DNA of 64,000 bases from an uncultured Clostridia bacterium (GTDB lineage Bacteria > Bacillota > Clostridia > Christensenellales > UBA1242): contig CALVTR010000002.1 of the NCBI GenBank assembly GCA_944362965.1, forward strand, positions 80,145 through 144,144, written 5' to 3'. Every line of letters starts with the position of its first letter. Position 1 is the stretch's first letter. The notes beneath the pieces are model-generated. The model made no database searches, was not told the origin of the DNA, and saw only the letters and a program-made list of their open reading frames with translations. The translations under genes and the position numbers were made by a program. Below, in pieces: positions 395 to 62,988 of this stretch.

Positions 395-647
395 AATTCT
401 TCTCCATTTATATTTCTATTTTGTTAAAACCTGTTGTTTTTATGCAAATTTCGACCTTTTTTGCATATCTTAGCCACATTTTAGCACTCTTGTAATCCCT
501 ATGTCACAAGTGTGACGGCACAATGGCGTCAAATCACGACCAGAATTTTTTAAGCCATTTGATTTGGAGAGCGGAAACAATGTTTATATATCCAACTCAC
601 CCTATCGGACATTCGCTAAGCGTTAGGCTTGAGAGCAGGCGTTAGCC

Positions 648-740
648 CAAGAGCGAATGTCCAAACTCCATAGGAGTTTGTGAAAGGCAAAAGCCTTTCG
701 TAAATTTTTGCCTTTGCAAAAATTTACACATTCGCTCTTG
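648..740. repeat. Three-hairpin junction element E1
   Basis: Closing stem caagagcgaatgt/acattcgctcttg. It encloses hairpins aaactcc-ata-ggagttt, gaaaggc-aaaa-gcctttc and gtaaatttttgc-cttt-gcaaaaatttac. Confidence 0.65.
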
Positions 741-790
741 CGGCGAAGCCGCTCGCGATAGCCGCTTGACGCGTCTATCTTTATGCTATT

Positions 791-7716: not shown

Positions 7717-7816
7717 TTGATGTTTTGTAGAAATTTAGTCACATTTTAGGCACAAAATTTTTTAATTTTTGTTATATTATTAGTTGCAAAAATTTTTGTA
7801 TTTCTTTGTAGGTGTT

Positions 7817-7905
7817 TTCGGGCAAGGAAGCGCGAGCGTGAGCGAGCAAATTGCGAAGCAATTTATAAAATTTTAAGAATTAAAATTTTGGCTTCCTTGC
7901 CCGAA
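7817..7905. repeat. Three-hairpin junction element E4 (first arm degenerate)
   Basis: Closing stem ttcgggcaaggaagc/gcttccttgcccgaa. Hairpins are aaattgc-gaa-gcaattt and aaaattttaa-gaa-ttaaaatttt. The first arm is replaced by non-palindromic gcgagcgtgagcgagc, which resembles the GC-rich repeat family. Confidence 0.55.
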
Positions 7906-8941: not shown

Positions 8942-9289
8942 TTAAAATCCTAATGAAATTAAAAGTGCCTTGTTGACTTCTCTCATCTTTTCAGGTGAAA
9001 GCGTTGTCACCTTTTCTTGCAAACGGCGTTTATCGAGTGTGCGTATCTGTTCAAGCAGAGCCACAGAGTTTTTAGGCAGGTTATATTTTTCGGCGGGCAA
9101 TTCAATATGGGTCGGCAACTTTGCCTTGCCTAGCTGGCTTGTTATTGCTGATACTATAACAGTTGGTGAATATTTGTTTCCAACATCGTTTTGAATTATA
9201 AGCACAGGACGAACACCACCCTGTTCACTTCCAACAACAGGGCTAAGGTCAGCGTAATAAATTTCTCCGCGTCTTATTTGTCCGTCCAT
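8942..9289 (-). CDS. mazF: Type II toxin MazF/EndoA (PemK family mRNA interferase)
   Basis: [47 protein letters not shown] is near-identical in pattern to Bacillus EndoA. Confidence 0.9.
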
Positions 9290-11557: not shown

Positions 11558-11806
11558 ATGAAAAACAAAAGTAAAAAAAGAAATCTTGAAGGACTTATTA
11601 ATATTGAATTAATACTTGATTTTATACAAAAAAATAAGCTTTCAAAATCCGCCTTTGCTAAGACTTGTGGAATATCAACTGCCCTGCTTACAAAAATTCT
11701 AAACGGCTATTGCGATATGGGCACATCAAAAGTCGTTAAAATTGCAAAAGCTATGGGTGTTAAATTTACACAATTAATTAATGATGACAAGGCTAATAAC
11801 TTTTAA
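11558..11806 (+). CDS. Small XRE-family HTH regulator
   Basis: 82 aa, LSKSAFAKTCGISTALLTKILNG. It is divergent from 11024..11206 across a 350-nt AT-rich spacer. Confidence 0.7.
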   Translation: MKNKSKKRNLEGLINIELILDFIQKNKLSKSAFAKTCGISTALLTKILNGYCDMGTSKVVKIAKAMGVKFTQLINDDKANNF

Positions 11807-12021
11807 CATTTATGTCCGCATGTAAATTAGTCCGTCTTTTTACTAAAAATTGCGAAAAATAAATGTTTATTACACTTAATAAATTTTATCAATGATCTTT
11901 TGATAGTTATAAGTTTTGTCCAAAAAAACTTCACATTTAAACTAGCAAAACATTTTTTAAAATCTTTTGCAACAGACTTACACAAAAGTTATTAATAAAA
12001 CTCGGTAAATAGATAAATAAG

Positions 12022-12395
12022 CAAAGCTGCCGCAAGGTAGAATGTCTTGCGGCGTCGGAGCGTATATAATCGGAGCAGAGCGACACCGCATATTGCCCGT
12101 GTGAGCCTCAGCGAACGTGGGCAGCGGAGCGTGCGAACGGAGTGAGCGTGCGAAGCCAAAAGCGGAGCGGAACGAAGTGAAAGCGGAGCGGAAAGCGGAA
12201 TTGCAGCTGCGTCGTAAGTGCAGCTGCGATGGAGCGCGAAAGCGAGCATAAGCGGTGCGTCAAGGGGTGCACCGCTTGTGCGAGCGGAGCAAGTTGCGAG
12301 CGTGGCGAAGCCGTGCGAGCAAAAAGCGAACGCAGTGAGCAAGCGATGCGAGCGTATGAGCCTTGCGAATGAGCGAGCGGAGCGGAGCGAGTTGA
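12022..12395. repeat. GC-rich structured repeat, copy A (longest)
   Basis: A GC-rich island (clearly above 60% by eye) in an AT-rich genome. Positions 12081..12320 align with 17074..17279. It contains the 13-bp hairpin gcataagcggtgc-N9-gcaccgcttgtgc and many GAGCG/GCGAGC words. Confidence 0.7.
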
Positions 12396-12664
12396 ACAAA
12401 CGAAAAAATAAAAAATACTTTTTTTGTATTCAAGTAAAACGGATTGTTTACGTGAATTAACCCTGCAAAATAAAACATTTACAAAATTATCAAAAAAGTT
12501 TAAATATATTTTTACAAGAATAATAATTAAAAAATATGTTTATTTAAAATCCATATTTTTTAAAAAAATTATAAATAAAAATGACAAAATAATACAAAAT
12601 ATATATATTGATTGCTTTATTATTTTTATTATGTTATAATAAAGCGAAAATACGGAGAATAATT

Positions 12665-13513
12665 ATGTTTTTTGAATACTTAAAAAATTTTGACGATTAT
12701 AGTCTTTTTTCTACAACACATATTTTGCATATTGTTTTTTGCATTGCGATAGCCATTATTCTTGCAATAGTTTTACGAAAGCTAAATAGCAAGCATCAGC
12801 GAATTGTTGGCATTGTTATTGCAAGTGTTGTTATTACGCTGCATATTGCAACTCAAGTTTGGCGTGCTGCTTCTTTTGCAGACGGAAGGTCAAAAGGGAT
12901 AATTGAAAGTGTGGCTTATCTTGTGATGCCTAACGAAATTCTACCTTTTCAACTTTGCAGTATGTTATGTTTCTTAATTCCTATCTGTGTTATGTTAAAT
13001 AAACAATGGATGTATAATGCTCTCGCGCCAATTTGCGTTATCGCAGGCTTTTTATATTTCTTCTTCCCAGATGGAATTATAAATCGCTATCCACCTTTCA
13101 GTTTTAGAGTTCTTGAGAGTATGCTTGTTCATACAGCAATTCTTTTCTATGGCATCTATCTATTCACAAGCAAAAAAGTTGTATTTAAACTTAAAAATAT
13201 GCGTGAAGTTTTCGCGTCCGCTGCTGTTCTCTTTGGCATCGCCATAATTATGAATGTTATAATAACAAACTTTGACCCTAACGTTGACTTCTTCTATATG
13301 ATGAAAGGTTTTGGGCTTGGACTTCACCCTGCAGTTAACGCAATTATAATTGCTCTTGTTGGGACTGCCCTATTCTTTGCGGTATATGGTATATGTCAGC
13401 TATGTTATAAATTGTCCGCAATTTATCAAGAAAAGAAACAACAAAGACTTGCAGTTGCTATTGAAGGAAATATAACACAAGAAGAAAATAACGAAAAAGA
13501 TAACAAAAAATAA
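12665..13513 (+). CDS. Polytopic integral membrane protein (YwaF/TIGR02206-like, tentative)
   Basis: About 7 predicted TM helices. The ATG at 12665, preceded by GGAGA, is preferred over the track start. Confidence 0.55.
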   Translation: MFFEYLKNFDDYSLFSTTHILHIVFCIAIAIILAIVLRKLNSKHQRIVGIVIASVVITLHIATQVWRAASFADGRSKGIIESVAYLVMPNEILPFQLCSMLCFLIPICVMLNKQWMYNALAPICVIAGFLYFFFPDGIINRYPPFSFRVLESMLVHTAILFYGIYLFTSKKVVFKLKNMREVFASAAVLFGIAIIMNVIITNFDPNVDFFYMMKGFGLGLHPAVNAIIIALVGTALFFAVYGICQLCYKLSAIYQEKKQQRLAVAIEGNITQEENNEKDNKK

Positions 13514-13540
13514 AAAGCGTAATTTTTTTACGCTTTTTAT
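13513..13540 (+). terminator. Rho-independent terminator
   Basis: aaaagcgtaa-ttttt-ttacgctttt plus a T run right after the stop. Confidence 0.7.
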
Positions 13541-13605
13541 TTTTCATCCACTTTCTTAGCTTATACATTCAACAAATTTTGCTTTTTAGATAAACTCGGG
13601 GCTTT

Positions 13606-13700
13606 ATAGGCAGCGGAAATTATTTGCTTTAAGCAAACAAAATTGCGATAGCAATTTTAAAATTTTAACTTAGTTAAAATTTTATTTTCGCTGCCCCTAT
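13606..13700. repeat. Three-hairpin junction element E5
   Basis: Bulged closing stem ataggcagcggaaat/attttcgctgcccctat. Hairpins are tttgctt-t-aagcaaa, aaaattgc-gata-gcaatttt and aaaattttaact-t-agttaaaatttt. Confidence 0.55.
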
Positions 13701-13736
13701 GTTATTATAAACATATAACTTATAATCAAAATCAAA

Positions 13737-15521
13737 TTACTTTAAAACAACCTTTATAAAGCTCTTTTTGCCTTTTTTAAGCAAAATTGAGCCATTTTCA
13801 AAGTCTTTTTCAAATATTTTCAATGAGAAGTCACTTATCTTTTCACCTTTAACAGAGATAGCCCCACCTTGGATAAGGCGTCTTGCCTCGCTCTTAGAAG
13901 GTGCAAGCTTAGTTGCAAACAAAAGGTCACAAATAGGCATCCCATCTTTGAAATCTTCTTTTGAAACTTCAAAAGTTGGAGCATCATCACCACCTTGTGT
14001 GAATAAGTTTTCGCTCATTTCTCTAGCCTTAACGGCATCTTCTTCGCCGCGAACAAATTTTGTTATTTCAAAGCATAGAAGTTTTTTTGCTTTGACTATA
14101 TCTTCTTTGATGAGTGCTCGAACCTTTTCCATTGGCTCATCAGTGAAGAGTGCAAACATCATTTCAACACATGCGTCTGGAGTTTGGTAAATACCTTGAT
14201 AAAAATCATAAGCAGAAATCTTATCTTTATCAATCCATATTGCACCCTTTTCAGTTTTGCCCATCTTTTTACCTTCTGGAGTTAAAAGTAGCGGATTTGT
14301 TGCACCAACCATGTTTCTTTCCTTGCCGTCAGCAAAGCTAAGTTTGCGTGCAAGTTTAACACCTGCTGCGATATTTCCCCATTGGTCTGCGCCGCCCCAT
14401 TCAAGAGAACAACCATACTGCTCATTCAAATGAACAAAGTCATAAGCCTGCATTGGCATGTAACCCATTTCAAAGAAAGTTAGTCCGCCTTCTTTCAAAC
14501 GGTTGTCATAGATTTCGCTTGACATCATTTCATTTACGTTGAAGTATTGACCTATATCACGCATAAAATCAATGTATGTGAGATTTTTAAACCAATCATA
14601 GTTATTGACAATTTCCGCTTTATTTTCGCCTTCAAAATCAAGAAAAACCTTTAAAGTGTCTTTGATTTTATCAATATTTGATTGTATTTGTTCTTTTGAC
14701 ATAAGCTTTCGCATATCACTTTTGCCTGACGGGTCACCGATGCAAGCAGTTGCCCCGCCCATCAAAAGATATACCTTATGCCCTGCCTTTTGGAAGCGTC
14801 TCATAATTACGTATGGCACGCAATGACCTATATGAAGGCTATCTGCGGTTGGGTCAGTTCCTTCATAAACGGCAATAGGTTTTCCGCTCTCAAGCATTTT
14901 TTTGAGAGCATCTTCATCAGTGCATTGGTATAAAAGTCCCCTTTCTTTTAATTCTTTAAACAAATTTGTATCTACTTTCATATTTTTCTCCTTTTCTAAA
15001 TCAAAATCGTATCTATTAAAATCTTCACCGCGAAACTCAATTTTATCTCTTAATTTCCCGTCATTTCGCTCAATACACTTTCTGCTTGCAATATTGCTTG
15101 ATTTGCAAGTTAAAAGCACCTTTTGTATCCCTAGTTTTTTGCATTCTTCTAATGCTAATTTTAATCCTATTGTGGCATAGCCTTTCCCCCTTTCGCTTAG
15201 ACGTATGCCATAACCAATATGCCCGCCAACAGTAGAAAGAAAGTCTGTTGCTATGCTATGTCTTATAGAAATATGTCCTAAAATTCTGTCTTCACCTTTA
15301 CGCTTTAAAAAGAAAACTGACGAAGGCACTCTTCCTTCTTCTAGATTGCGCCCTTCTCTTTCATCCTGCTTTATGTTTAGCCAGCTTTCATAGTCATCAC
15401 CTATTTTAAAATCAAGTGGTTTTGATTCTGGATTTGACTTATGAAATTCGTCTATATATGCAAGCCAATCTTTTTTATCACTTAATGCTGGAAAAGCTAA
15501 AATAAATTTATTTTCTTCCAT
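13737..15521 (-). CDS. tyrS: Tyrosine--tRNA ligase with in-frame N-terminal GNAT acetyltransferase domain
   Basis: Residues 181-594 are a complete TyrRS (LHIGH, KMGKT, C-terminal S4 domain). Residues 1-180 are GNAT-like (GYGIRLSERGKGYATIGLKLALEE). No stop separates them. The internal ATG at 14981 has its own AAGGAG SD 7 nt upstream. Confidence 0.9.
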   Translation of the reverse strand: MEENKFILAFPALSDKKDWLAYIDEFHKSNPESKPLDFKIGDDYESWLNIKQDEREGRNLEEGRVPSSVFFLKRKGEDRILGHISIRHSIATDFLSTVGGHIGYGIRLSERGKGYATIGLKLALEECKKLGIQKVLLTCKSSNIASRKCIERNDGKLRDKIEFRGEDFNRYDFDLEKEKNMKVDTNLFKELKERGLLYQCTDEDALKKMLESGKPIAVYEGTDPTADSLHIGHCVPYVIMRRFQKAGHKVYLLMGGATACIGDPSGKSDMRKLMSKEQIQSNIDKIKDTLKVFLDFEGENKAEIVNNYDWFKNLTYIDFMRDIGQYFNVNEMMSSEIYDNRLKEGGLTFFEMGYMPMQAYDFVHLNEQYGCSLEWGGADQWGNIAAGVKLARKLSFADGKERNMVGATNPLLLTPEGKKMGKTEKGAIWIDKDKISAYDFYQGIYQTPDACVEMMFALFTDEPMEKVRALIKEDIVKAKKLLCFEITKFVRGEEDAVKAREMSENLFTQGGDDAPTFEVSKEDFKDGMPICDLLFATKLAPSKSEARRLIQGGAISVKGEKISDFSLKIFEKDFENGSILLKKGKKSFIKVVLK

Positions 15522-15556
15522 AATTTTTCTCCTTTATCTAATTTTTATATAAATTT

Positions 15557-16669
15557 TTAATTTTCTATAATAATAAGTGGCAACAGCATTTCTCGTTTTG
15601 ACAAGCCTGTATGATGCCCCTTATATCTATGGCTATTTTCTTTAAACAAAACTATTTTATTATAATTTTTCACAACACCTATATAGTCGCCTAAATAGCT
15701 AAGCTTATCTGTTTTTGTGCCAAAATAATTTTTATTGATAAGTTCTTGCGACCTATAAAGTTTTATATCCTTCTTATATTTTTTCATTTCATGCAAAAAA
15801 TTTTGTTCTTGACCTTCTTTTACTTGAAAAGCAAAGGCGCGTGGTTCTAGATATATTGGCACTTTAAGCGTGTCAAGAAGCGGCTTATCTTTATAAATTT
15901 CAATATACTCGTCTATGTCAGTTTGACCGTGGTCTGGAGTTATGATTACAAGTGTATTTTTATTATTTTTGACAAAATTTTCAATTTTTTCATTCAAATA
16001 ATTGATAATTTCTTTCGCTTTGTTGCTATTTACGCCATACTCATGCATTGTGCAATCTGGGTTTTCATTATAGCAATAGATAAATTGTTTGCCATCTTTC
16101 TTGCATATTTCATCAAGTTGTGAAAACATTTCATCATTTGTTTTATAATGATAATTTTTGCCCTTTTCCATTGTGATATATGGCGGTGAAATGATATTTA
16201 TTTGATAATCTGTGTTTGTTCTGTCAGTATATGGCGAAATTTTTATAATATCTTCAATTTTTGACATATCAATAGGTTCGCCGCTATATTCGTCTTTGCC
16301 TGTATAAACAGCAACAACGCGGTCTAGTTCTTTAAAATACATGCTCCAGCCGAACATAACATTTTTTGATGGATAATTTGCACATCGAAGCACTGTTGTT
16401 GCATTGGTTGTTGTTGATGGAAAAACTGAAGTTATCGTTTTCTTTATATTCTTATACAAAAATTGGTCCTTTGTTAAATTTGATTTTAAAGGAAAAAGCC
16501 CAAGTCCGTCAAGATTTATATAAACCACATTTTTATATTGTTTTGACAAGCTTTTTTGCAAAATTTTAACTCTTTTTACGTCTTCTAAATCATTGCAGCC
16601 TAAAAATTCAGCAATAGTTGTGCTGACATTTAATATTGAATTTTTAAAATTTGGCTTTATAAATCTCAT
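15557..16669 (-). CDS. Alkaline-phosphatase-superfamily enzyme (nucleotide pyrophosphatase/phosphodiesterase-like)
   Basis: YINLDGLG, a VFPSTTTNATT nucleophile-type motif and ITPDHGQTD. It is the first gene behind the Tyr T-box. Confidence 0.65.
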   Translation of the reverse strand: MRFIKPNFKNSILNVSTTIAEFLGCNDLEDVKRVKILQKSLSKQYKNVVYINLDGLGLFPLKSNLTKDQFLYKNIKKTITSVFPSTTTNATTVLRCANYPSKNVMFGWSMYFKELDRVVAVYTGKDEYSGEPIDMSKIEDIIKISPYTDRTNTDYQINIISPPYITMEKGKNYHYKTNDEMFSQLDEICKKDGKQFIYCYNENPDCTMHEYGVNSNKAKEIINYLNEKIENFVKNNKNTLVIITPDHGQTDIDEYIEIYKDKPLLDTLKVPIYLEPRAFAFQVKEGQEQNFLHEMKKYKKDIKLYRSQELINKNYFGTKTDKLSYLGDYIGVVKNYNKIVLFKENSHRYKGHHTGLSKREMLLPLIIIEN

Positions 16670-16683
16670 AATTTTCTCCTTAC

Positions 16684-16925
16684 AAAAAAAACACGCCGGC
16701 CTAAAGTTTTAGGACGAGCGTGCTCGTGGTACCACCTAAATTTATGCGAGGACAACCAAAAACATAGATTTTTTTCTGTCTTTGCACCTTATTTTCTCGT
16801 TCGTGAGAATAACGCAAAACTTGAAATAAATGTAATTCGCTTTATAGTGTCATTCAGGCTTTCACCAACCGCCCTATCTCTTTATGCCCATTTATAAAAC
16901 TACTGATTTTACTCCGCCATTTTGT
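16684..16925 (-). promoter_or_regulatory. T-box riboswitch leader (probable Tyr specifier)
   Basis: The minus strand shows AAAGAGATAGG, GGTGAAAG, the T-box AAATTTAGGTGGTACCACGAGC and a terminator ending in a T run. A UAC triplet (GAAUUACAUU) lies in the specifier region, and tyrS is downstream. Confidence 0.8.
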
Positions 16926-17064
16926 TTTTGCTAAAAAATTACTGCAATAAGCATATAATTTATTTTATTATAAAAGTTGAAAATCAAATTGTCAACACTT
17001 ATTTGAAATTTTATAAAAATATTTAAAAAAGGTCAATGTATTGCAATTTAATTTTATAAATTGG

Positions 17065-17330
17065 AACGAAAGTGACACCGCATGTTGCCCGTGTGAGCTA
17101 TAGCGAACGTGGGCACGCGGAGCGTGCGAGCAAAGCGAGCGTGCGGAGCGAAGAGCGGAATTGCAGCGTCACGTGAAGTGGTGCTGCGATGGAGCATAAA
17201 AGCGAGCATAAGCGGTGCGTCAGGGGTGCACCGCTTATGCGAGCGGAGCAAGTTGCGAGCGTGGCGAAGCCGTGCGAGCGGAGCGGAAAGTAAGAGAATG
17301 AACCTAGCGAGTGTGTGAGCGGATAAGAAG
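17065..17330. repeat. GC-rich structured repeat, copy B
   Basis: Aligns with copy A. It shares gacaccgcatgttgcccgtgtgagc and the perfect 13-bp hairpin gcataagcggtgc-gtcaggggt-gcaccgcttatgc, followed by gagcggagcaagttgcgagcgtggcgaagccgtgcgagc. Confidence 0.7.
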
Positions 17331-17486
17331 AGATAATTCTATAATCAGTAGAATATAAGAAATAACAAGTCCATTTTGAGAACGAAACAAAAGAGGCGGA
17401 AAAATAAAGTTAATTTAATAAATCTAAATGAAAAAAACAAAATAAAAGTAGAACGAAGAAAAAAACTAAATTACAGGTAAATTTGG

Positions 17487-17663
17487 ACGAAGAGATGAGC
17501 GAGCATAAGCGGTGCGTCAGGGGTGCACCGCTTATGCGAGCGGAGCAAGCTGCGAGCGTGATCGTAGGTCGTGCGAGCGGAGCGAAGCAGGAAAACAAAA
17601 TTAAAAAACAAAATAAAAAATGTGTAAATAAAGCTTTTACGCCGTGCGAGAAGGAAAGCACGT
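17487..17663. repeat. GC-rich structured repeat, copy C (partial)
   Basis: Repeats the hairpin core gagcgagcataagcggtgcgtcaggggtgcaccgcttatgcgagcggagcaag. A further fragment, acgccgtgcgag, lies at about 17640. Confidence 0.6.
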
Positions 17664-17765
17664 AATATGGCAAAGTAAAATTTTTTTAAAATTAAAAATA
17701 CAAAAAAAATAATGAAAAATATTCTTACAATAAAATACCAGTTCACTGGTGATTTTAATTTTAGT

Positions 17766-17860
17766 TACTTATTCTCTTTATTATAATTTGTTTCAATGTT
17801 TGTTGTGTCGATATCTTCCACATTTATTATTGTTCCATTAACTGACTCTTCTGTCTCTTT
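17766..17860 (-). pseudogene. Remnant of a duplicated 3' end of the neighbouring membrane-protein gene
   Basis: The minus-strand translation ..EESVNGTIINVEDIDTTNIETNYNKENK* parallels the C-terminus ..TNETIINVEDNSTQTNDTTNTETYNNEENK* of 17941..18639. No start codon is present. Confidence 0.5.
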
Positions 17861-17940
17861 TATCTGTTTGATAAAAAAACTTTTAAGATTGTTATCAAAA
17901 AAAGCCATCAATTTCTTGATGGCTTTGCTTATTACATTTG

Positions 17941-18639
17941 TTATTTATTCTCTTCGTTATTATATGTTTCGGTGTTTGTTGTGTCGTTTGTTTGCGTGCT
18001 ATTATCTTCTACGTTTATTATTGTTTCATTAGTTGTTGTTCCTGTTGTTGCATTGTCCTTAGGTTCTGTATCAATAACTACAGGTTGGGCATTTTTTGTT
18101 TTTAAATATAATTTATATGAATATTCAGCAACCCAAATTAAGCCTATTGTTACAACACCCATGACAATTACAAAGGCAATCATACCACCACAAACAAAGG
18201 TTTCTCCAGTATCGGCATCTCTTATGCCAAACATACCCATTGTTATAACTTGATCGCTTGCCCAATACTGATCTTTTTCAGTTTGAGAGAGTGCATTGTA
18301 TTCGTCAACTGCCTGTCTATAGTCTTCTTCTGTGTAAGTTCCATTTGAGCCATCTCCTTTAGCACCAATCATGCCAACTTGGCTGCCGTTTGTGATTATG
18401 TAAATATCAGTAGAAACATTTGTGTTTCCGTCAGAGACTTTTAGAGTCATGGTCTTACTGCTATTAATTGTCATTGACATTTTTACGCCTTCAATGTTAG
18501 CTGTATATGCCATGTTATAGTTGATAGGTCTTACAAGAACGTATATGTAGATTATTGCAAGTATTGCTGCAACTACCACAAGTGCTATCATGACACCCTT
18601 TTTCTTTAAAAATTCATTTGCTTTTTCTTTAAACTTCAT
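17941..18639 (-). CDS. Membrane protein with T/N-rich C-terminal tail (unknown function)
   Basis: 232 aa with an N-terminal TM, a second TM near residue 150, and a low-complexity Thr/Asn tail. Confidence 0.6.
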   Translation of the reverse strand: MKFKEKANEFLKKKGVMIALVVVAAILAIIYIYVLVRPINYNMAYTANIEGVKMSMTINSSKTMTLKVSDGNTNVSTDIYIITNGSQVGMIGAKGDGSNGTYTEEDYRQAVDEYNALSQTEKDQYWASDQVITMGMFGIRDADTGETFVCGGMIAFVIVMGVVTIGLIWVAEYSYKLYLKTKNAQPVVIDTEPKDNATTGTTTNETIINVEDNSTQTNDTTNTETYNNEENK

Positions 18640-18803
18640 ATTTCTCTCCTTAAAGTTATTATAACATAATAATATATAATTTACAAGTAAAATGTTGTTT
18701 TTCGCCTTTTAAATTATTAATTTATTTAATTAATTATATTTTATCATTTTATTTTGAAATTTGAGTTAGTTTCCCTATAATAAATATTGGAGGAAATAAA
18801 TTT

Positions 18804-20764: not shown

Positions 20765-22261
20765 TTATTCTATTTCATCGTCTCTATCAAAATAGCTAGC
20801 ACCTTCCACTGGTTTAAGCTTATTGATATCAAAGGCAGCAAAACCTTTTGTTACAAGTTTTTCAAAGTCGCCTTCATAGAAAATGCAAACATCTTCAAAC
20901 TGAGTTTTAAGTTCATTTATCGCATTATCAATGAAGGCTTGTCTGTCTTCTTCTGTTGAGAATTTATTATTGTCTATTGAATAATCATAGCCATTTTTAA
21001 AATATGAACACAAAAATCTTATCAAATGCAAGAAATAGTAGTCACTTTGTTCAATCATATACCTTCTATAACGTGCACTAAGTTCTGCGTCATAGAAATA
21101 TTTTTCTGACTTCATAGGGTCATTACGTTTTACTGAGAACAATGAAAAAGCGTAATTTCTTGGATAAAAGCCTCCCCTGATGTTATGTGAATTAGGATTT
21201 AACATGATGGTTGCATCACCATTAACTCTGTAAACTACCCTATGCTTCAGTTGTTTCTCACCGTTTTTTGTTTCTCTTTCAAATCTTATTTTTCCATTGC
21301 TTTCTACACTTGCAATATGTTGAGATAAGATATCAAGCATTTCCTTTTCGCTAATTTTTTCTACTGGGAACATATCAAGCATATTTGACAAAGTGTTTTT
21401 GAACTTCTGTAGTTTATCATAAGAAATACTGCTTTCAAATTCAGTTGCTTCAGTATGTTCTTCATCTTCATAAACTATTTCATCTTGCAATCTGCGGCGA
21501 ATCTCGCCAAGAGTATCATTGTCAACTTCACCAATATAATTTTTTATTCTTTGTGGAGAAATCACTTTCAAAACTGGAACGAGATAGCTTGTGAGATCGG
21601 TAAATTTGCCAACTTCGTAGCTGTCTTTTTTAAGTTTGTCAGTAAGCGGAACACAATAATATACGCATTTATTTTTACTTCTACCAATTATCACGACCGG
21701 TCTTTCGCCGCCAAACTCTTCTCCAACAACAGGATTTAGATCTGCAAAGTATACGCCCTTTATCTTAATCTCTCTATCTTTTCTGTAATAGCGATTTTCA
21801 ATCATTTTGAACTCAACATGGTTGCCTATTTGCACATGTCCCATTTTAGCTAGCAGTCTGCACCTTGCGTCAGCTTTTACCATATTTTCCCATTCTTCAA
21901 TACGAGTGCTATATAGCGACTTTATTAAGGCTTCCTGTATTTGTTTCCCTGCTTCTTCGGCAAGCTTTTCAAATTCTTCCTTTAAAGTGCCAATTTCGGT
22001 ATACTTGCTTGCTATATAGTCAACAAGCGTCCTTTTAAGTTTTGTCTCTAGGGTTTTATTTCCGCATTGAATGTAAATCTCATTATTATATAACTTTAAA
22101 AGCACATTCTCTTTGCTGTGCGTGTCTTGAACTGTAAGTATAATTTGGCTGCTATCTGGCTTTAATTTTTCAAAAGACAACACGTCATACCCTTTCTTAA
22201 ATACCTTAAGAAAAGGAACCTTTAGTTCTTCTAAATCTAGACATATTTTAAAATCACTCAT
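20765..22261 (-). CDS. Large multidomain protein with an embedded MazF/PemK-like domain
   Basis: 498 aa. Residues about 165-275 read KGVYFADLNPVVGEEFGGERPVVIIGRSKN...VISPQRIKNYIGEVDNDTLGEIRRRL, parallel to the canonical MazF at 8942..9289. The flanking domains of roughly 165 aa (N-terminal) and 220 aa (C-terminal) are unassigned. Confidence 0.7.
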   Translation of the reverse strand: MSDFKICLDLEELKVPFLKVFKKGYDVLSFEKLKPDSSQIILTVQDTHSKENVLLKLYNNEIYIQCGNKTLETKLKRTLVDYIASKYTEIGTLKEEFEKLAEEAGKQIQEALIKSLYSTRIEEWENMVKADARCRLLAKMGHVQIGNHVEFKMIENRYYRKDREIKIKGVYFADLNPVVGEEFGGERPVVIIGRSKNKCVYYCVPLTDKLKKDSYEVGKFTDLTSYLVPVLKVISPQRIKNYIGEVDNDTLGEIRRRLQDEIVYEDEEHTEATEFESSISYDKLQKFKNTLSNMLDMFPVEKISEKEMLDILSQHIASVESNGKIRFERETKNGEKQLKHRVVYRVNGDATIMLNPNSHNIRGGFYPRNYAFSLFSVKRNDPMKSEKYFYDAELSARYRRYMIEQSDYYFLHLIRFLCSYFKNGYDYSIDNNKFSTEEDRQAFIDNAINELKTQFEDVCIFYEGDFEKLVTKGFAAFDINKLKPVEGASYFDRDDEIE

Positions 22262-52540: not shown

Positions 52541-53215
52541 ATGACAAACGACAATATTACAATGACTATGTTTGAGCTTTATTCAAAGTATCGTGATGGA
52601 GAATTAAGTTTGGAAAGAGCTTCATATTTTATTAAAAAACTTGATGACATTCGTCATGACAAGAAGATTTCAGATTTATTTGATAATAAACAAGATTTAT
52701 TTGATATTGTCAATATTCATTGCAATGAAATTGACATACTTTTTGATGCAAGTGACAATTATAAAACTACAGCTCTTGAAGAAGAAAACAAAGGAAAAGT
52801 TATATGTGACATCTTCTTTAAAAAAGAAGGAAAGAATCATCTTTTCTTAGGCAGATTTGTAAACGTTGACGCAGACACTGCCCGTGCGATTAAAAACTTT
52901 TTGAGAAATGGTATATATGCACCACATATTTTTAGCTATGATTATGACAATCAAAGATTTGATAGAGAGCGCTTCTCTAAGTTATCAAATAAAGGGCTTA
53001 TGCAATACAAAGATTACATTGATTCAAATATCGACTGCCTTACTGAAGTGACATGCATATCTGAAAGTAGTGACGCCCTACGTGATGACATCAAAAAAGG
53101 TATAGTTGAGGCTTGGAGAAGAAATATGATACAAAGTCATCTTGATTATCGACTTACCGCCTATGAAAGGGCTTGTGAAATTGAAAATGGTGATGGTGAA
53201 GACGAGAGAGAATAA
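52541..53215 (+). CDS. Paralog 1 of an uncharacterised tandem family
   Basis: 224 aa. It shares the N-terminal pattern (..ELYSKYRDGELS..YFIKKLD), a central FFKKEGKN..LG block and an acidic tail (ENGDGEDERE) with the next three ORFs. Confidence 0.65.
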   Translation: MTNDNITMTMFELYSKYRDGELSLERASYFIKKLDDIRHDKKISDLFDNKQDLFDIVNIHCNEIDILFDASDNYKTTALEEENKGKVICDIFFKKEGKNHLFLGRFVNVDADTARAIKNFLRNGIYAPHIFSYDYDNQRFDRERFSKLSNKGLMQYKDYIDSNIDCLTEVTCISESSDALRDDIKKGIVEAWRRNMIQSHLDYRLTAYERACEIENGDGEDERE

Positions 53216-54466
53216 CAAAGGAGAAATTTATGGAAATAGACAATATCAAATTTGCAATGCTTGGAATTTATGATAAGTATAAGCAAGGAAAAATCAGTCA
53301 AGAAGTGGCAGAATATTTTGTATCTCATCTTGATAGCGTGCAAAGAAAAAATGGCGTGCAAAATTTATCACAAGTCATCTATGATTATGAACATGCTGAA
53401 ATTGGTATAAGTTTTGCAACAGTCGGCAAGCCATACATCTTTGAAGAAGAAAATAGCAAACTTGTTCGTGAGCTATTCTTTATGGATCAAGGCGAAAAAT
53501 ACCCTATCTATCTTGGTGATATAATTAAGCTTAATAAAAATGTTGAAAATAGACTTGAATACTTTTTAGAGCAAGGTGTTTATTACCCAAGTGTTCAAGC
53601 TTTTCATTGGGGTGAAACCGACTTGGAAAATGACAAGCGAAGATTTAGACTATTGCCAATGGAAGAGCTAAAGAAATATAGAAAATATATAAACGACCTT
53701 ATTAATAGTCGTAGCGTTATGAAATTTGGTAAAGACTGCCCTTACCATATTGAGCAAAAGAGATTTGAAGCTGAAATGTTTACAAAATGGCAAGTATATA
53801 TGTTAAACAGACCAATGCTTTATAGAATTGATGCTTACAATCTTATTGATAGAAGCGAGGCTGAAAGAAATAAAATTGACGAAAACGGAGATGGCGAGAG
53901 AGAATAACAAAGGAGAAATTTATGGAAATAGACAATATCAAATTTGCAATGCTTGGAATTTATGATAAGTATAAGCAAGGAAAAATCAGTCAAGAAGTGG
54001 CAGAATATTTTGTATCTCATCTTGATAGCGTGCAAAGAAAAAATGGCGTGCAAAATTTATCACAAGTCATCTATGATTATGAACATGCTGAAATTGGTAT
54101 AAGTTTTGCAACAGTCGGCAAGCCATACATCTTTGAAGAAGAAAATAGCAAACTTGTTCGTGAGCTATTCTTTATGGATCAAGGCGAAAAATACCCTATC
54201 TATCTTGGTGATATAATTAAGCTTAATAAAAATGTTGAAAATAGACTTGAATACTTTTTAGAGCAAGGTGTTTATTACCCAAGTGTTCAAGCTTTTCATT
54301 GGGGTGAAACCGACTTGGAAAATGACAAGCGAAGATTTAGACTATTGCCAATGGAAGAGCTAAAGAAATATAGAAAATATATAAACGACCTTATTAATAG
54401 TCGTAGCGTTATGAAATTTGGTAAAGACTGCCCTTACCATATTGAGCAAAAGAGATTTGAAGCTGA
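53203..54466 (+). repeat. Direct tandem duplication, 692-bp period
   Basis: Positions 53203..53774 appear identical by eye to 53895..54466 (572 bp, including RBS AAAGGAGAAATTT and 181 codons). The copies diverge from 53775/54467 onward, with a short re-matching patch. Confidence 0.8.
53230..53907 (+). CDS. Paralog 2 of the tandem family
   Basis: 225 aa. The first 185 aa are identical to paralog 3. The tail reads ..FTKWQVYMLNRPMLYRIDAYNLIDRSEAERNKIDENGDGERE. Confidence 0.65.
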   Translation: MEIDNIKFAMLGIYDKYKQGKISQEVAEYFVSHLDSVQRKNGVQNLSQVIYDYEHAEIGISFATVGKPYIFEEENSKLVRELFFMDQGEKYPIYLGDIIKLNKNVENRLEYFLEQGVYYPSVQAFHWGETDLENDKRRFRLLPMEELKKYRKYINDLINSRSVMKFGKDCPYHIEQKRFEAEMFTKWQVYMLNRPMLYRIDAYNLIDRSEAERNKIDENGDGERE

Positions 54467-54599
54467 GATGGTTGAAGAATGGCAAAAATATATGATAAAA
54501 AATCAAATGGCTTATAGAATTGATGCTTACAATCTTATTGGCAGAAACGAGGCTGAAAGCGAAGAAACGAGCGAAATTGGTGATGACGAGCGAGAATAA
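53922..54599 (+). CDS. Paralog 3 of the tandem family
   Basis: 225 aa. The tail reads ..VEEWQKYMIKNQMAYRIDAYNLIGRNEAESEETSEIGDDERE. Confidence 0.65.
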   Translation: MEIDNIKFAMLGIYDKYKQGKISQEVAEYFVSHLDSVQRKNGVQNLSQVIYDYEHAEIGISFATVGKPYIFEEENSKLVRELFFMDQGEKYPIYLGDIIKLNKNVENRLEYFLEQGVYYPSVQAFHWGETDLENDKRRFRLLPMEELKKYRKYINDLINSRSVMKFGKDCPYHIEQKRFEAEMVEEWQKYMIKNQMAYRIDAYNLIGRNEAESEETSEIGDDERE

Positions 54600-56557: not shown

Positions 56558-59500
56558 TTATATTTTTGCTATAAACACTTGAACTTGTTTTGAGTTAAAA
56601 TCAAATTCCATTGAATTTGTTCCGTTTGTGCCTAGTTTAACTTCATCGCAGAGCGTTCCTTTCTTGATTGTATCAGAATATTTAAGTAGCATATTTGCAA
56701 GCTCTTCGTCACCGCTAAGCTCTATCTTTATATGGTTTACAACTTCAAAACCGCTTTCTTTGCGAAGATTTTGCACCTTTGATACAAATTCTTTAACCAT
56801 ACCCTTTTCAATTAGGTCTTGTGTCAAGTTAGTGTCAAGCACAACTGTCATCTCGCCATTTGTTTCGCTTGAATAACCTTCTTTATTTTTAAGACCAATG
56901 AGAAGGTCTTCTTCGCCAAGTGATACTTCTTGTCCGTTTACTGTGAACTCAAGTTTGCCGCCCTGACGAACCTTATTGACATTTTCCGCACTTCCTGCAT
57001 TTGCAAGATACGCTTTTATTCCGCCTAAAAGTTTGCCATACTTTGGTCCAACTGTGCGAAGTTGTGGTTTAAGCTCGTAAGAGACAAATTCATCCGCATT
57101 GTGCAAAATTTCAATTTCTTCAACATTGAGCTCGTCTTTGATAAGTGCTTGAAGCTCGCCGTCAAGAGAAAGTTCCTTGCTTGTGCAAACGATAACCTTT
57201 GAAAGTGGTTGACGGTTTTTGACATTGCTTGCTGAGCGGCATGATCTACCCAAGTTTACAATTTCAAGAACTTTATCCATGCCTTCGTTAAGACGCGCAT
57301 CAATCATGCTTTCATCTGCTGTTGGGTAGCTGCAGAAATGCACGCTTTCTGGCGAATTTTTATCAAGGCTTCTTACAAGGTTTTGATATATTTCTTCTGC
57401 CATAAATGGAACAAAAGGTGCGATAAGTTTGCTGAGCGACACAAGAACTTCATAAAGAGTTTTATATGCAGCCTTCTTGTCGTCGTTTTCTTCACTTCCC
57501 CAGAACCTTTCACGGGAACGGCGAATATACCAGTTTGAAAGTCTATCAACAAACTCACTGATTGCAGCTGCTGGCGTTTTCATATCATATTTTTCAAGCC
57601 CTTCTTCTACCACCTTTATTAGTGCGTTATAGTCTGAAAGTAACCACTTATCAAGGAAAGTCAGTTTGCAATCTTTCAGGCTATACTTGCTTGGGTCGAT
57701 TTTATCAATCTCTGCATAAAGGACATAGAAATAGTAGACATTCCACAATGTTCCCATAAACTTACGTTGAAGGTCAACAAGATTTTCTTCTATAAATGGC
57801 AGTCCTTGTGCCGGGTTGCAACTTGAGAAGAAATACCAGCGGACACCGTCAGCACCATATTTGCCAAGCACTTCCCATGGGTCTACACCATTTTTAAGGC
57901 TCTTTGACATCTTAAGTCCATTTTTATCAAGCACAAGTCCTAGCACATTGCAGGCTTTAAATGGTGCTTTATCAAAGACCGCCGTGTTGACCGTGAGAAG
58001 TGTGTAGAACCAGCCACGTGTCTGGTCAATAGCTTCGCTGATATAATCTGCCGAGAACGCCTTTTTGAAGGTCTCTTGATTTTCAAATGGATAGTGATAT
58101 TGTGCAAATGGCATAGAGCCGCTATCAAACCAACAGTCCATGACTTCTGGTGTTCTATGCATAGTCTTGCCACAAACTGGGCATGGGAAAGTTATCTTAT
58201 CAAGCGTTGGCTTGTGCAGATCAAGCTCACCTGTGGCGCCTGAAAGCTGACGCAGCTCTTCAACTGAGCCTATAACATGAACGTGACCATTTTCGCATTT
58301 CCAGAAAGGAAGTGGCGTTCCCCAATAACGATTACGTGAAATATTCCAATCTATATTATTTGCAAGGAAGTTGCCCATACGCCCATTTTTAATGTGGTCT
58401 GGTATCCAATTTATACCCTGATTGTTTTTTACAAGTTGGTCACGGATTGCGGTGGTCTTAACAAACCACGCGTCTTGTGCGTAGTAAAGAAGTGGGCTTT
58501 TGCATCTCCAGCAATGTGGATATGAGTGCTCTATTGGTTGAACCTTGAACATCTTATCTTCATTTTTCAATTTTTCTATGATAAGCTTGTCGGCATCTTT
58601 GACAAAAAGTCCACCAAAGTCGGTTTTATCGCTCATGTGCCCGCTTTCATCAACGAGCTGAACGAAGGTTAAACCATACTTTACACCTGCTTTATAGTCA
58701 TCTTCGCCAAAAGCTGGAGCAATATGAACGATACCTGTTCCGTCTTCGGTTGTAACATAGTCGTCAACTATAACAAAATAGCCTTTTTTAACTTCATCTT
58801 TAACATAATCAAAGAGTGGTTCATACTTATGATACTCAAATTCCTTACCCTTCTTTGTGTAAACCTTTGTGAAAGTGCCTTCTTCAAAAAGTGTTGGTAT
58901 AAGTTTGTCAAGCATGATATAATTTTTGCCTTCAAAGCAAAGTTTTGTATAGTCTTCATTTGGATTCATACAAAGTGCAACGTTTGATGGAAGAGTCCAT
59001 GGTGTTGTTGTCCATACAAGGAAATATGTGTTGTCTTCTTCAAGACTTTTCATCTTAACATAAACAGAATTTTCTTTTAATATCTTATAATTGTCGCCAT
59101 TTTCAAGTTCTGCTTTTGACAGGCTTGTTCCACATCTTGGGCAATATGGCACAACTTTATGACCTTGATAGATAAGCCCTTTCTTGTCCATCTCCTTAAG
59201 AGCCCAAAACACACTTTCAATATAATTATTGTCGTAGGTTATATAAGGATTGTCCATATCAACCCAATAGCCAATCTTTTTAGTCAAATCTTCCCACATT
59301 GACTTATATTCCCAGACTGACTTCTTGCAAAGGTCAATAAACTTATCAATCCCATAATTTTCTATGTCTTTTTTGCCGTTAAAGCCAAGTTTTTTCTCAA
59401 CTTCAACTTCTACAGGAAGTCCATGTGTGTCCCACCCTGCTTTGCGGTAGATATAATAGCCCTTCATTGCCTTGAAACGTGGAATGACGTCCTTCATAGC

Positions 59501-59689
59501 TCTTGTGAGAACGTGTCCAATATGTGGCTTACCATTTGCAGTTGGTGGACCATCATGCAAAACAAAGCTCTTATCGCTATTTTTGTTTAAATCAAGTCCT
59601 TTTTTGATTATATTGTTCTCTTCCCAAAATTTTAGGATTTTTGCTTCATTTGCAACGAAATCTAGTTTAGAATCAACCTTTTTATACAT
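56558..59689 (-). CDS. ileS: Isoleucine--tRNA ligase (type 2, about 1040 aa)
   Basis: PPTANGKPHIGH (HIGH), LKMSKSLKN (KMSKS), a CP1 editing domain and a long C-terminal extension. Confidence 0.95.
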   Translation of the reverse strand: MYKKVDSKLDFVANEAKILKFWEENNIIKKGLDLNKNSDKSFVLHDGPPTANGKPHIGHVLTRAMKDVIPRFKAMKGYYIYRKAGWDTHGLPVEVEVEKKLGFNGKKDIENYGIDKFIDLCKKSVWEYKSMWEDLTKKIGYWVDMDNPYITYDNNYIESVFWALKEMDKKGLIYQGHKVVPYCPRCGTSLSKAELENGDNYKILKENSVYVKMKSLEEDNTYFLVWTTTPWTLPSNVALCMNPNEDYTKLCFEGKNYIMLDKLIPTLFEEGTFTKVYTKKGKEFEYHKYEPLFDYVKDEVKKGYFVIVDDYVTTEDGTGIVHIAPAFGEDDYKAGVKYGLTFVQLVDESGHMSDKTDFGGLFVKDADKLIIEKLKNEDKMFKVQPIEHSYPHCWRCKSPLLYYAQDAWFVKTTAIRDQLVKNNQGINWIPDHIKNGRMGNFLANNIDWNISRNRYWGTPLPFWKCENGHVHVIGSVEELRQLSGATGELDLHKPTLDKITFPCPVCGKTMHRTPEVMDCWFDSGSMPFAQYHYPFENQETFKKAFSADYISEAIDQTRGWFYTLLTVNTAVFDKAPFKACNVLGLVLDKNGLKMSKSLKNGVDPWEVLGKYGADGVRWYFFSSCNPAQGLPFIEENLVDLQRKFMGTLWNVYYFYVLYAEIDKIDPSKYSLKDCKLTFLDKWLLSDYNALIKVVEEGLEKYDMKTPAAAISEFVDRLSNWYIRRSRERFWGSEENDDKKAAYKTLYEVLVSLSKLIAPFVPFMAEEIYQNLVRSLDKNSPESVHFCSYPTADESMIDARLNEGMDKVLEIVNLGRSCRSASNVKNRQPLSKVIVCTSKELSLDGELQALIKDELNVEEIEILHNADEFVSYELKPQLRTVGPKYGKLLGGIKAYLANAGSAENVNKVRQGGKLEFTVNGQEVSLGEEDLLIGLKNKEGYSSETNGEMTVVLDTNLTQDLIEKGMVKEFVSKVQNLRKESGFEVVNHIKIELSGDEELANMLLKYSDTIKKGTLCDEVKLGTNGTNSMEFDFNSKQVQVFIAKI

Positions 59690-59774
59690 AATTTTCTCCT
59701 TTTTTTGTTTTTCCTACCACATTTTTGTAACTTTGTGTTTGCATTGCACTCGGGCTTATGAGATAAAGCTGGGG

Positions 59775-59850
59775 TTTAGACAAAGCGAGCCGTGCGGGCG
59801 CGTCAGCGGTGCGACCGCGTGGCGAGCGGAGCGAAGCTTCTTTGCGTTTT
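59775..59850. repeat. GC-rich repeat fragment (copy D) inside the ileS leader
   Basis: gcgagccgtgcgggcgcgtcagcggtgcgaccgcgtggcgagcggagcgaagc shares GCGAGCGGAGC words and a gcggt-gcg-accgc hairpin with copies A-C. Confidence 0.45.
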
Positions 59851-60021
59851 AAAGTGCAGCGAATCTCTTTACTCTTTATAGGCAAACCGCTTTTTAATAA
59901 AAATGTTCTATTGCCATATATGCTTTTAATCTTTTTTGCCTATTATATTTTCTTTCGCAAACATTATTCGCCCTGCTTAGCCAAAAAACAATATGCATTA
60001 CAAAGTGTTTCAATATGTTAA

Positions 60022-60275
60022 ATCTAACAAAAAGCCCATTAAGTTACAAGAACCTAATGGGCCAAACCACTTGTAATCTTATAGCCGAGCAAACACTCGC
60101 CCCTTCTATAACGGGAAGTCCCGACAATTTTTACACAAGAATTTATAAAAAATATCCTTTTTCAAAATTGCAACTCCGAAAGTGATAATTTTTAAGCCTT
60201 TCTATTGCCTTCCACCACAAACGGCAACTCTCTGGATGAACCTAACTTAAAAACCTTGTCTTTCATCAACGCTTT
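60022..60275 (-). promoter_or_regulatory. T-box riboswitch leader (probable Ile specifier AUC)
   Basis: The minus strand shows GTTGATGAAAGACAAG, CCAGAGAGTTGCC..GGTGGAAGGCAA, the specifier-region triplet AUC (AAAUUAUCACUU), a degenerate T-box AAGTGGTTTGGCCC and the terminator gcccattaggtt-N6-aacttaatgggc plus TTTTTG. Confidence 0.65.
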
Positions 60276-60374
60276 TATTATTACTAAACATTATTTATTT
60301 TAGTCACTTAAAACACATTTGTCAATAAATTTTATCTATTTTTAGGGAAAAGAGATGGTATCATCTCTAATTAT

Positions 60375-62790: not shown

Positions 62791-62921
62791 GGCTGTGAGC
62801 TTTAGCTCTGCCCAAGAAAACATGCGAATTTTTCAAATTCGCATTATGACGCAAAGGCTTTTGCGTCATCAGAAACTCTTTCGAGTTTCTGTTTTCTTGG
62901 GCAGTTGCTAAAGCCACAGCC
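62791..62921. repeat. Three-hairpin junction element E11 (31-bp closing stem)
   Basis: Closing stem ggctgtgagctttagctctgcccaagaaaac/gttttcttgggcagttgctaaagccacagcc (3 mismatches). Hairpins are atgcgaattt-ttc-aaattcgcat, atgacgcaaa-ggct-tttgcgtcat and cagaaactc-tttc-gagtttctg. Confidence 0.75.
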
Positions 62922-62961: not shown

Positions 62962-62988
62962 TATTATACCCCCCCGCAACCCACGTCA
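62962..62988 (-). promoter_or_regulatory. Putative sigma-A type promoter with a G7 tract in the spacer (copy 2)
   Basis: The minus strand reads TTGACG-tgggttgc-GGGGGGG-TATAAT. The block is shared with 791..850. Confidence 0.5.

Follow-up and report, generated by a model that had tools for sequence, protein, structure and literature searches.

The DNA analysed here is a 64,000-nt stretch from an uncultured Clostridia bacterium (assembly GCA_944362965.1, contig CALVTR010000002.1, forward-strand positions 80,145-144,144). It is referred to as the window, and all positions are those of the window. The GC content of the whole window is 34.5%. Within it, sliding windows picked out four islands with GC fractions of 0.59-0.61 (12046-12395, 17061-17320, 17486-17600 and 59746-65), which are the copies of an interspersed repeat family. 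A preliminary description, made from the sequence alone, had reported a GC-rich repeat family at four places, and the sequences and coordinates were found to be as described there. The four copies are the following:

12022..12395, plus strand: copy A, the longest, with an extra 5' hairpin, hairpin H1, linker words, H3, the H4 core, H5 and 3' linker words
17055..17330, plus strand: copy B, with the hairpins H1-H2-H3-H4-H5; its homology to copy A starts at a TATAAAT box
17487..17600, plus strand: copy C, with the lead GACGAAGAGAUGAGCGAGC, H4 (17499-17541) and H5
59775..59850, plus strand: copy D, a minimal unit with the H4 core at 59785-59827 plus GAGCGGAGCGAAGC, antisense to the ileS leader

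Copies A and B share about 77% identity across 244-261 nt, in agreement with the alignment proposed earlier, and copy C has the core hairpin and the one after it in common with them. The sequence in the ileS leader had been taken for a fragment. It is instead a short, complete minimal unit. On the plus strand, the core common to the four islands consists of AGCGAGC, 9 nt, GCGTC, a loop of 3-4 nt, GGTGC, 9 nt and GCGAGCGGAGC. A degenerate core pattern (GCGAGC-N9-GCGTCA-N1-4-GGTGC-N9-GCGAG) matched the window four times, namely in the four islands and always on the plus strand, and it was absent from 100 shuffles. The words of which the islands are built are concentrated in them: all 13 occurrences of GCGGAGC in the window and 20 of the 30 plus-strand occurrences of GCGAGC lie inside islands. 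The plus strand of the islands is purine-rich, with about twice as much G as C and about twice as much A as T (138 G, 77 C, 89 A and 46 T in copy A).

Contigs with the same tyrosyl-tRNA synthetase (TyrRS) from other samples of the species carry A, B and C at 99.7-100% identity, and the island sequences were recovered in five independent assemblies. Low-complexity expansion, which had been named as a competing explanation, was seen for short linker stretches only. Tandem Repeats Finder reported weak, short arrays that were confined to linkers (period 5-13, 3-4 copies), so that simple expansion accounts for a small part of the islands. The feature is real, it is explained by no library searched, and the structural evidence is good for its size.

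That the islands are remnants of a GC-rich coding gene, small open reading frames (ORFs) or an assembly artefact is hardly tenable. The pyrimidine-rich strand does carry long ORFs, one of 135 amino acids across copy A and one of 123 amino acids that was called as a gene in contig L001, and a 33-nt indel between A and B is a multiple of three. However, the ORFs differ from copy to copy, an indel in the core loop and another one of 52 nt break the frames, and the pyrimidine-rich strand is free of stop codons by composition alone. The 135-amino-acid minus-strand ORF had no homologue in a word-indexed search of 5.8 billion clustered proteins, the 123-amino-acid ORF had no match other than itself and its counterpart at this locus in another strain, and in a HMMER pass over 1.84 billion representative proteins the ORF matched only itself. 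No intact frame is shared by the copies, and no homologue was found beyond the ORF called in the species itself, as expected from the earlier view that the islands are non-coding. Because five independent assemblies agree, the islands are not an artefact.

The islands also belong to no RNA family in Rfam 15, a comparison that the preliminary description had proposed. At gathering thresholds, the window contained only signal recognition particle RNA, transfer-messenger RNA and three tRNAs, and permissive scans of 11800-17900 and 59000-61000 yielded two T-boxes and chance matches of at most 28 bits. Several known structures were considered and rejected. A group II intron domain V lacks support, as there is neither the bulge nor an Rfam match, and a retron or diversity-generating retroelement RNA was dismissed because no reverse transcriptase is encoded nearby. 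By eye, core-site motifs of an integron attC site were not seen. The tandem G·A pairs of a kink-turn are present and its 3-nt bulge is lacking, and G runs for a G-quadruplex are missing. Nor do the islands resemble a CRISPR array, as a regular period and nearby Cas domains were not found.

Hairpin modules, covariation and the folding strand

The islands consist of rows of short hairpins, of which the following were annotated in copies A and B:

12029..12053, plus strand: extra 5' hairpin, in copy A only, GCCGCAAG ... CUUGCGGC (from sequence and fold)
12095..12122, plus strand: hairpin H1, GCCCGUG...CGUGGGC, an invariant stem with tandem G·U; among the copies, the loop reads CUC, UAU or GAA
12201..12229, plus strand: hairpin H3; its sequence differs in A, B and copy F1 of the relative L047, and all of them fold, with the loops GUAA, GUGAA and GUUA
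12242..12285, plus strand: H4 core of copy A, with GCGAGC, a 16-bp helix, a 4-nt loop and GCGAGC (77.7 bits with covariance model R1)
12296..12320, plus strand: hairpin H5, GCGAGC-GUGGC-GAA-GCCGU-GCGAGC (from the fold)
17202..17244, plus strand: H4 core of copy B (79.9 bits with R1)

The H4 cores of copies C and D scored 76.2 and 72.1 bits with the same model. R1 also detected other island hairpins at low scores, which indicates that the islands reiterate one design. In the preliminary description, the core had been presented as a 13-bp hairpin kept in the longer copies. The hairpin exists, but its length had been underestimated: on the plus strand, the core helix comprises 16 bp, because GCGUC and GGUGC pair via a tandem G·U, and pairing of GCGAGC with GCGAGC extends it further. 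An A-to-G change in the right arm of copy A gives a U-G pair, and the CAAGGGG versus CAGGGG indel sits in the loop, both as noted previously. A second hairpin, thought to be compensated between copies, corresponds to H3, which differs in sequence between A and B and folds in both. The H3 sequences of A, B and F1 are unrelated, yet all of them fold (z = -4.7, -4.8 and -2.3, respectively). In copy C, H5 is present as the variant GCGUGAUC-GUA-GGUCGUGC, in which the pairing and the GNA-type loop are kept and one extra compensated pair has been added.

The modules share a grammar of closing words, tandem wobble pairs and linkers. GCGAGC flanks each hairpin on both sides as a closing word. In the RNAfold structures, the GC dinucleotides at the outer ends of the two words pair, with a 2x2 GA/GA internal loop between them. 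In RNA thermodynamics, 5'-CGAG-3' facing 5'-CGAG-3' is well established as the classic case of tandem sheared G·A. According to the folding model, GCGAGC can pair with itself with tandem G·A pairs. In a strain variant (A12283T, in L002/L003), one G·A of the closing word becomes a G·U. Every stem contains a tandem G·U step, CGUG:CGUG in H1, H2 and H5 and CGUC:GGUG in H4. The hairpin loops are short, variable and often of the GNRA or GNA type (for example, GAA and GUA in H5), and the linkers between the modules are strings of GCGGAGC, GCGAAGC and GCGAAAGC.

The preliminary description had suggested that RNA or DNA structure, rather than a protein, is conserved, and covariation of the core was quantified accordingly. 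A gapless alignment of five distinct cores was built because MAFFT had shifted copy D by one column. In this alignment, 98.8% of the cells were paired, and 8 of the 16 pairs had changes on both sides. The covariation score was reached by none of 500 shuffles, and slid controls were at most 60% paired. All seven distinct cores were then aligned via the covariance model. In this structure-fitted alignment, 97.3% of the cells were paired and 17 cells were doubly changed. The tandem G·U of H4 and its flanking C-G pairs were invariant, and in F2, the second copy of L047, the next G-C pair below them has become A-U. On the evidence of these alignments, the H4 helix has been kept paired by selection. 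Compensatory changes that fit one strand are thus present in H4, and H3 and H5 keep their pairing as well.

The same alignment discriminates between the two strands. Among the 112 cells of H4 in the seven cores, 24 are G·U and none is A·C. Read on the minus strand, these 24 cells would become mismatches and pairing would drop to about 76%. The base composition of the islands predicts G·T and A·C to be about equally likely, and the presence of the former without the latter therefore indicates the purine-rich plus strand as the folding strand. Folding energies were also better on the plus strand than on the minus strand, and better for RNA than for DNA. The plus strand of copy B folds as a row of hairpins from H1 to H5 with an RNA z-score of -3.69 (-2.77 for the reverse strand), whereas with DNA parameters the z-score was about -1.5 for either strand. 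Folding of copy A resembles that of copy B in being better on the plus than on the minus strand. By GC skew and gene orientation, the minus strand is the leading strand in this region and the plus strand is then the leading-strand template, which would not be the strand that is most exposed in single-stranded form. RNA is probably the folding form rather than single-stranded DNA (ssDNA), because the plus strand is the leading-strand template, the loops are GNRA-like and the z-scores are better for RNA.

Distribution, remodelling and the copy in the ileS leader

An exact-pattern scan of 185,579 species genomes returned 17 matches, all in genomes with 51-74% GC and none with a complementary stem, and they were discarded as spurious for these reasons. 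A metagenome search for the hairpin core, which had been proposed earlier, found the pattern in contigs of this organism alone: the JGI metagenome scan gave 11 spurious matches and contigs of the same organism. Three scans of IMG/VR with different module patterns and a blastn search with copy A against plasmids and phages gave no match, and about 250 kb of sequence from more distant relatives was free of copies when searched with model R1. Close relatives, which were retrieved separately, also carry the family, and the family is lineage-restricted. In the single metagenome assembly that contained the organism, five core matches were found on three contigs; repeats break assemblies. The metagenome scan also revealed a fifth locus, E, a 70-nt minimal unit upstream of rlmB-like and sigma-factor-like genes.

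Comparison of strains revealed rapid remodelling of the islands. L047, the TyrRS of which is 96% identical, has two tandem copies, F1 and F2, at the A locus. In F1, a deletion between two GCGAGC words has removed H4, and in F2 the module order is permuted to H4-H1-H2. Copy C is 52 nt shorter than its counterpart C' in L001, and this indel is bounded by GCGAGCGTG repeats. These comparisons show that the repeated words drive the remodelling: slippage or recombination at GCGAGC and GCGAGCGUG repeats removes, duplicates and reorders the modules.

The copies were also checked for variable loci between strains, as had been recommended, and they do sit in strain-variable segments:

17020..18747: strain-variable block with copies B and C and a gene for a 232-amino-acid membrane protein; 28 nt stand in its place in L047 and 111 nt in L044
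59705..60022: 318-nt insert carrying copy D, between the ileS T-box terminator and the ileS ribosome-binding site

At the A locus, the segment 10669-13737 between tyrS and an Impact_N gene varies around a core that consists of a divergent pair of helix-turn-helix (HTH) genes of the XRE type. In the window, its cargo is a TMEM164-like gene together with copy A; L047 has two copies there, L048 has a Fic-domain gene, and L044 has no cargo. Copies are thus gained and lost together with small accessory DNA segments.

A function of the islands in double-stranded DNA, as clusters of Chi-like or protein-binding words that form recombination hotspots at the edges of accessory segments, appears very improbable. 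AGCGG is the AddAB Chi word of Bacillus subtilis. It occurs 21 times on the plus strand of the islands, 10 times in copy A alone, and the islands lie at the borders of strain-variable blocks. In the rest of the window, its strand distribution of 24:49 favours the putative leading strand, a bias that is also typical of Chi sites. However, a Bacillus subtilis word may not be the Chi of this organism, the skew outside the islands also tracks the general purine and coding-strand bias, and within the islands the word is oriented opposite to the genomic skew. In addition, a double-stranded site would leave both the compensatory changes and the asymmetry in favour of G·U unexplained.

The insert with copy D allowed a comparison of an orthologous copy with its surroundings. 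Copy D is situated downstream of the T-box terminator of ileS, on the strand opposite to ileS. The 318-nt insert is present in the window and in L039/L040 and absent from L054, L041-43 and L055. It is thus kept in relatives with 94.6% identical isoleucyl-tRNA synthetase (IleRS), which carry the orthologous copy D' in the ileS leader, cleanly absent at 96.8% identity, and absent at 90% and 87%. When the window is compared with L039, the identity is 85% for the D core, 86% for the T-box, 42% for the adjacent AT-rich spacer and 74% for the stretch from D to the ribosome-binding site. The copy in the ileS leader is therefore as conserved as the neighbouring T-box, which points to selection on it in place. 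AT-rich genomes lose GC by mutation. That a segment keeps 75% GC under AT-biased mutation speaks for constraint or else for gene conversion with other copies as donors. An island with 60-75% GC that has compensatory changes and is conserved like a riboswitch-like leader is unlikely to be neutral. The ileS leader mRNA itself, on the minus strand, did not fold better than chance (z = +0.2).

Two T-box leaders were identified next to the copies, one at 16707-16925 (minus strand) upstream of the phosphodiesterase-tyrS operon and one at 60044-60278 (minus strand) upstream of ileS. They scored 81.7 and 67.8 bits, below the Rfam gathering cut-off of 93, and are clearly real by position. A perfect TTGACA-17-TATAAT promoter is located at 16995-16967. 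The TyrRS gene (13737-15521, minus strand) encodes 594 amino acids with an N-terminal GNAT acetyltransferase domain; relatives whose synthetase part is 83-96% identical have a plain TyrRS of 414 amino acids, and L050 encodes GNAT in a gene of its own nearby.

The patchy occurrence of copy D bears on the possibility that the family is a non-autonomous mobile element of the ssDNA type, similar to REP/BIME or derived from IS200/IS605, and served by a Y1/HUH transposase that another part of the genome would encode. The presence of D disagrees with the IleRS tree, as a relative with 94.6% identity has the filled site and a relative with 96.8% identity a clean empty site. Each of the solo units D and E is a single hairpin, imperfect and strand-specific, between invariant flanks, the four window copies have one orientation, and GCGAAGC and GCGGAGC are of the GCGNAGC type, which forms very stable DNA mini-hairpins. 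Nevertheless, we consider such an element improbable. No convincing target-site duplication or terminal inverted repeat was found at the filled and empty ileS sites or at the junctions of the B/C block; because the plus strand is purine-rich from end to end, its ends cannot be reverse complements and terminal inverted repeats would not be possible. The ileS insertion consists of 318 nt of mostly AT-rich DNA and not of the hairpin alone, the copy number seen is low, nothing similar was found in other taxa, and the z-scores are weaker when the islands are folded as DNA. The plus strand would be the leading-strand template and not the lagging-strand template that is favoured by IS200/IS605. Finally, no transposase is encoded within about 10 kb of the copies.

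The absence of mobility genes next to the copies had already been noted, and Pfam analysis of the surroundings of A-D confirmed it: genes for transposases, reverse transcriptases and Cas proteins are lacking within about 10 kb. The genes in this range encode TyrRS, a phosphodiesterase-family protein, GGGtGRT-family proteins, HTH proteins, a TMEM164-like protein, IleRS, a CBS protein, a methyltransferase and a pseudouridine synthase.

Possible functions and relation to known systems

The reading that we favour, tentatively and with somewhat less than even confidence, is that the islands are lineage-restricted, non-coding, modular interspersed repeats, the effective unit of which would be a single-stranded, purine-rich plus-strand RNA that acts locally. 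The plus strand would be transcribed, and the product would be RNA, neither a protein-coding region nor a double-stranded DNA site. It may form a compact, nuclease-resistant domain of several hairpins that acts locally on the transcripts that contain it or to which it is antisense. At the A locus, this would be an RNA domain in the 3' region of the transcript of an HTH gene, as A and F1/F2 lie downstream of the same HTH gene and on the same strand. At the D locus, it would be a cis-antisense RNA to the ileS leader. No enzyme belonging to the family is encoded nearby.

Several observations weigh against this interpretation. The covariation comes from seven related copies, paralogous and orthologous, so the events are few and not independent, and the alignment of seven cores was fitted by a model. 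An ssDNA form is also possible, because G·T pairs, tandem G·A pairs and mini-hairpins of the GCGNAGC type have stable counterparts in ssDNA, as is known from the literature on d(GCGAAGC). The scans of the collections demanded exact matches to a strict pattern, so that distant relatives could have been missed, and the source genome itself did not turn up in the species-genome scan. The copy number is low in the one assembly in which it was seen. With respect to transcription, neither a plus-strand sigma-70 promoter nor an intrinsic terminator was found for A and B by a consensus scan, and D has only a weak, 5-bp terminator-like site. Because B/C and D are oriented against their neighbouring genes, each of them would need its own promoter.

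Inspection of the sequences revealed that GATAAA, TATAAA or GTAAAT precedes each unit. D and D' share TTGCAW-17 nt-GATAAR, and the spacer between the two elements has diverged. The conservation of these -35/-10-like hexamers upstream of D and D' is one point in favour of a multi-copy family of trans-acting small RNAs (sRNAs), a possible, though not a probable, alternative. Its purine linkers would titrate an RNA-binding protein, as a CsrA-type sponge, or mimic Shine-Dalgarno motifs, and D would in addition be a cis-antisense RNA. This view also accommodates the covariation and the strand evidence, the conservation of D at the level of the T-box, the tandem pairs B-C and F1-F2, which recall some multi-copy sRNA families, and the many GGA motifs in the linkers between hairpins (GCGGAGC, ACGGAG, AUGGAG). 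However, the loops (AGG, AAGG, AGC, AAG, GAA, UUUU) are without a conserved GGA, consensus scans gave no clear promoters or terminators, the copies are missing from very close relatives, which would be odd for a core regulator, and the module content is freely variable. To our knowledge, no sRNA antagonist of CsrA has been described in Firmicutes. From what is generally known of the sponge sRNAs CsrB and RsmZ, the islands resemble them in having a series of hairpins with GGA-rich single-stranded segments between them and in occurring as multi-copy paralogues. In sponge sRNAs, by contrast, the hairpin loops that contain GGA are conserved, and the genes have clear promoter and terminator sequences, whereas in the islands the loops vary and promoters or terminators are not evident.

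Another alternative, which we judge to be unlikely, is an undescribed accessory class of structured RNA with a cellular role, for example in the cis-antisense control of aminoacyl-tRNA-synthetase leaders or in the sequestration of RNA-binding proteins. The synthetase example is suggested by the positions of the copies, which flank tyrS, with one in the ileS leader and one upstream of the rlmB-like gene. In such a class, GCGAGC would pair with itself by tandem sheared G·A and CGUG by tandem G·U, and direct repeats would act as inverted repeats at the RNA level.

Irrespective of function, the family is classed as interspersed structured intergenic repeats, and it belongs to no named family. Its behaviour is closest to that of the pneumococcal BOX and the staphylococcal STAR elements, and it also resembles REP/BIME mosaics. 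Like the islands, the BOX elements of Streptococcus pneumoniae (boxA-boxB(n)-boxC) are modular intergenic repeats of a low-GC Firmicute with variable module number, they are predicted to form stable stem-loops if transcribed, and the large copies have ORFs on both strands (PMC3049150). They are also restricted to one species group, new insertions are slow, and one BOX is part of a composite structure with T-box leaders, as copy D is situated in a T-box leader here. However, BOX elements have terminal inverted repeats, target-site duplications and about 125 copies, whereas the present family has neither terminal repeats nor duplications and about five copies were seen. The islands also differ in their single orientation, their strongly purine-rich strand and a GC content far above that of the genome, and by eye the two families have no sequence similarity.

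The STAR elements of Staphylococcus aureus are likewise GC-rich intergenic direct repeats in an AT-rich Firmicute with loci that expand and contract and locations that vary by species and lineage (PMC3532100). They consist of a 14-bp direct repeat, T(G/A/T)TGTTG(G/T)GGCCC(C/A), with spacers of about 40 bp, whereas covarying hairpins define the family described here. The STAR consensus had a single match with two mismatches in the window, outside the islands, with 1.7 expected by chance.

REP/BIME elements and their RAYT transposases (Gilson et al.; Nunvar et al. 2010; Bertels and Rainey 2011) resemble the islands in several ways: the palindromes are rich in GC, imperfect and flanked by conserved sequence, several hairpins form mosaic clusters with linker motifs in between, and the imperfections of the hairpins are strand-specific. 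Units D and E have the REP-type organization of a palindrome with flanks, as each is one hairpin between invariant AGCGAGC and GCGAGCGGAGC. In contrast to REP elements, the islands have no GTAG-type head, few copies rather than hundreds were seen, they are found in Clostridia and not in Proteobacteria, and no RAYT gene is encoded within about 10 kb of A-D. An alternating arrangement as in REPINs was not observed, as all hairpins and all copies are direct, and the islands lack the terminal inverted repeats and target-site duplications of MITE- or BOX-like elements. A relation to omega-RNAs of IS200/IS605 elements was not apparent either: TnpA and TnpB are not encoded near the copies, and no relatives were found in the viral, plasmid, phage, genome and metagenome collections. 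Outside bacteria, the mobile GC clusters of yeast mitochondria are comparable as short GC-rich hairpin-formers, dispersed over an extremely AT-rich genome, that are strain-polymorphic and linked to rearrangements. They differ in belonging to a eukaryotic organelle, in being much shorter and true palindromes, and in lacking the purine strand bias and the modular G·A/G·U grammar.

If the plus strand is transcribed, the family would represent a new structured RNA from an uncultured lineage of gut-type Clostridia, with helices that rely on tandem G·A and G·U pairs, and would be useful for RNA structure prediction and for searches of GC-rich intergenic regions. If it is mobile as ssDNA, it would extend REP-like elements to Clostridia. 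Under either reading, the islands mark the edges of strain-variable segments and generate indels at repeated words, which is relevant for the assembly and strain typing of metagenome-derived genomes.

Further structured and repetitive loci

Three other loci in the window (645-745, 62800-62915 and 7815-7905) have the shape of a cloverleaf, in which an outer stem of 12-16 bp surrounds three near-perfect hairpins. They share no sequence with each other, they have no Rfam match, and their RNA z-scores of about -10, -11 and -8, respectively, are similar on both strands. One hairpin of the cloverleaf at 7815-7905, GCGAGC-GUGA-GCGAGC, is built like the island hairpins; it is conserved in L044 and L047, with the loop changes GAA, AAA and GGA. 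An identical 51-nt block (CCCCCCCGCAACCCACGTCAAGCAAATTTAAC...) is present at 798-848 and 62969-63019, about 50 nt from two of the cloverleaf loci. Its reverse complement contains TTGACG-15 nt-TATACT or TATAAT after an A/T-rich tract, and the block looks like a shared promoter directed toward the cloverleaf on the minus strand.

In L050 (15776-16015) and also in L051 (6946-7180), tandem GC-rich units of about 145 nt, each ending in a partial tRNA 3' half, are located beside an intact tRNA gene and look like scars of repeated integration at the tRNA. The region 52541-54599 of the window contains three tandem paralogous genes of 224-225 amino acids without a Pfam match, and within them 53195-53494 and 53887-54186 (300 nt) are 99% identical. 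Two further genes, both on the minus strand, are related to PemK/MazF-type toxins: the gene at 8942-9289 encodes a toxin of the standard 115 amino acids, and the gene at 20765-22261 a protein of 498 amino acids with a PemK_toxin domain match, which is unusually long for the family.

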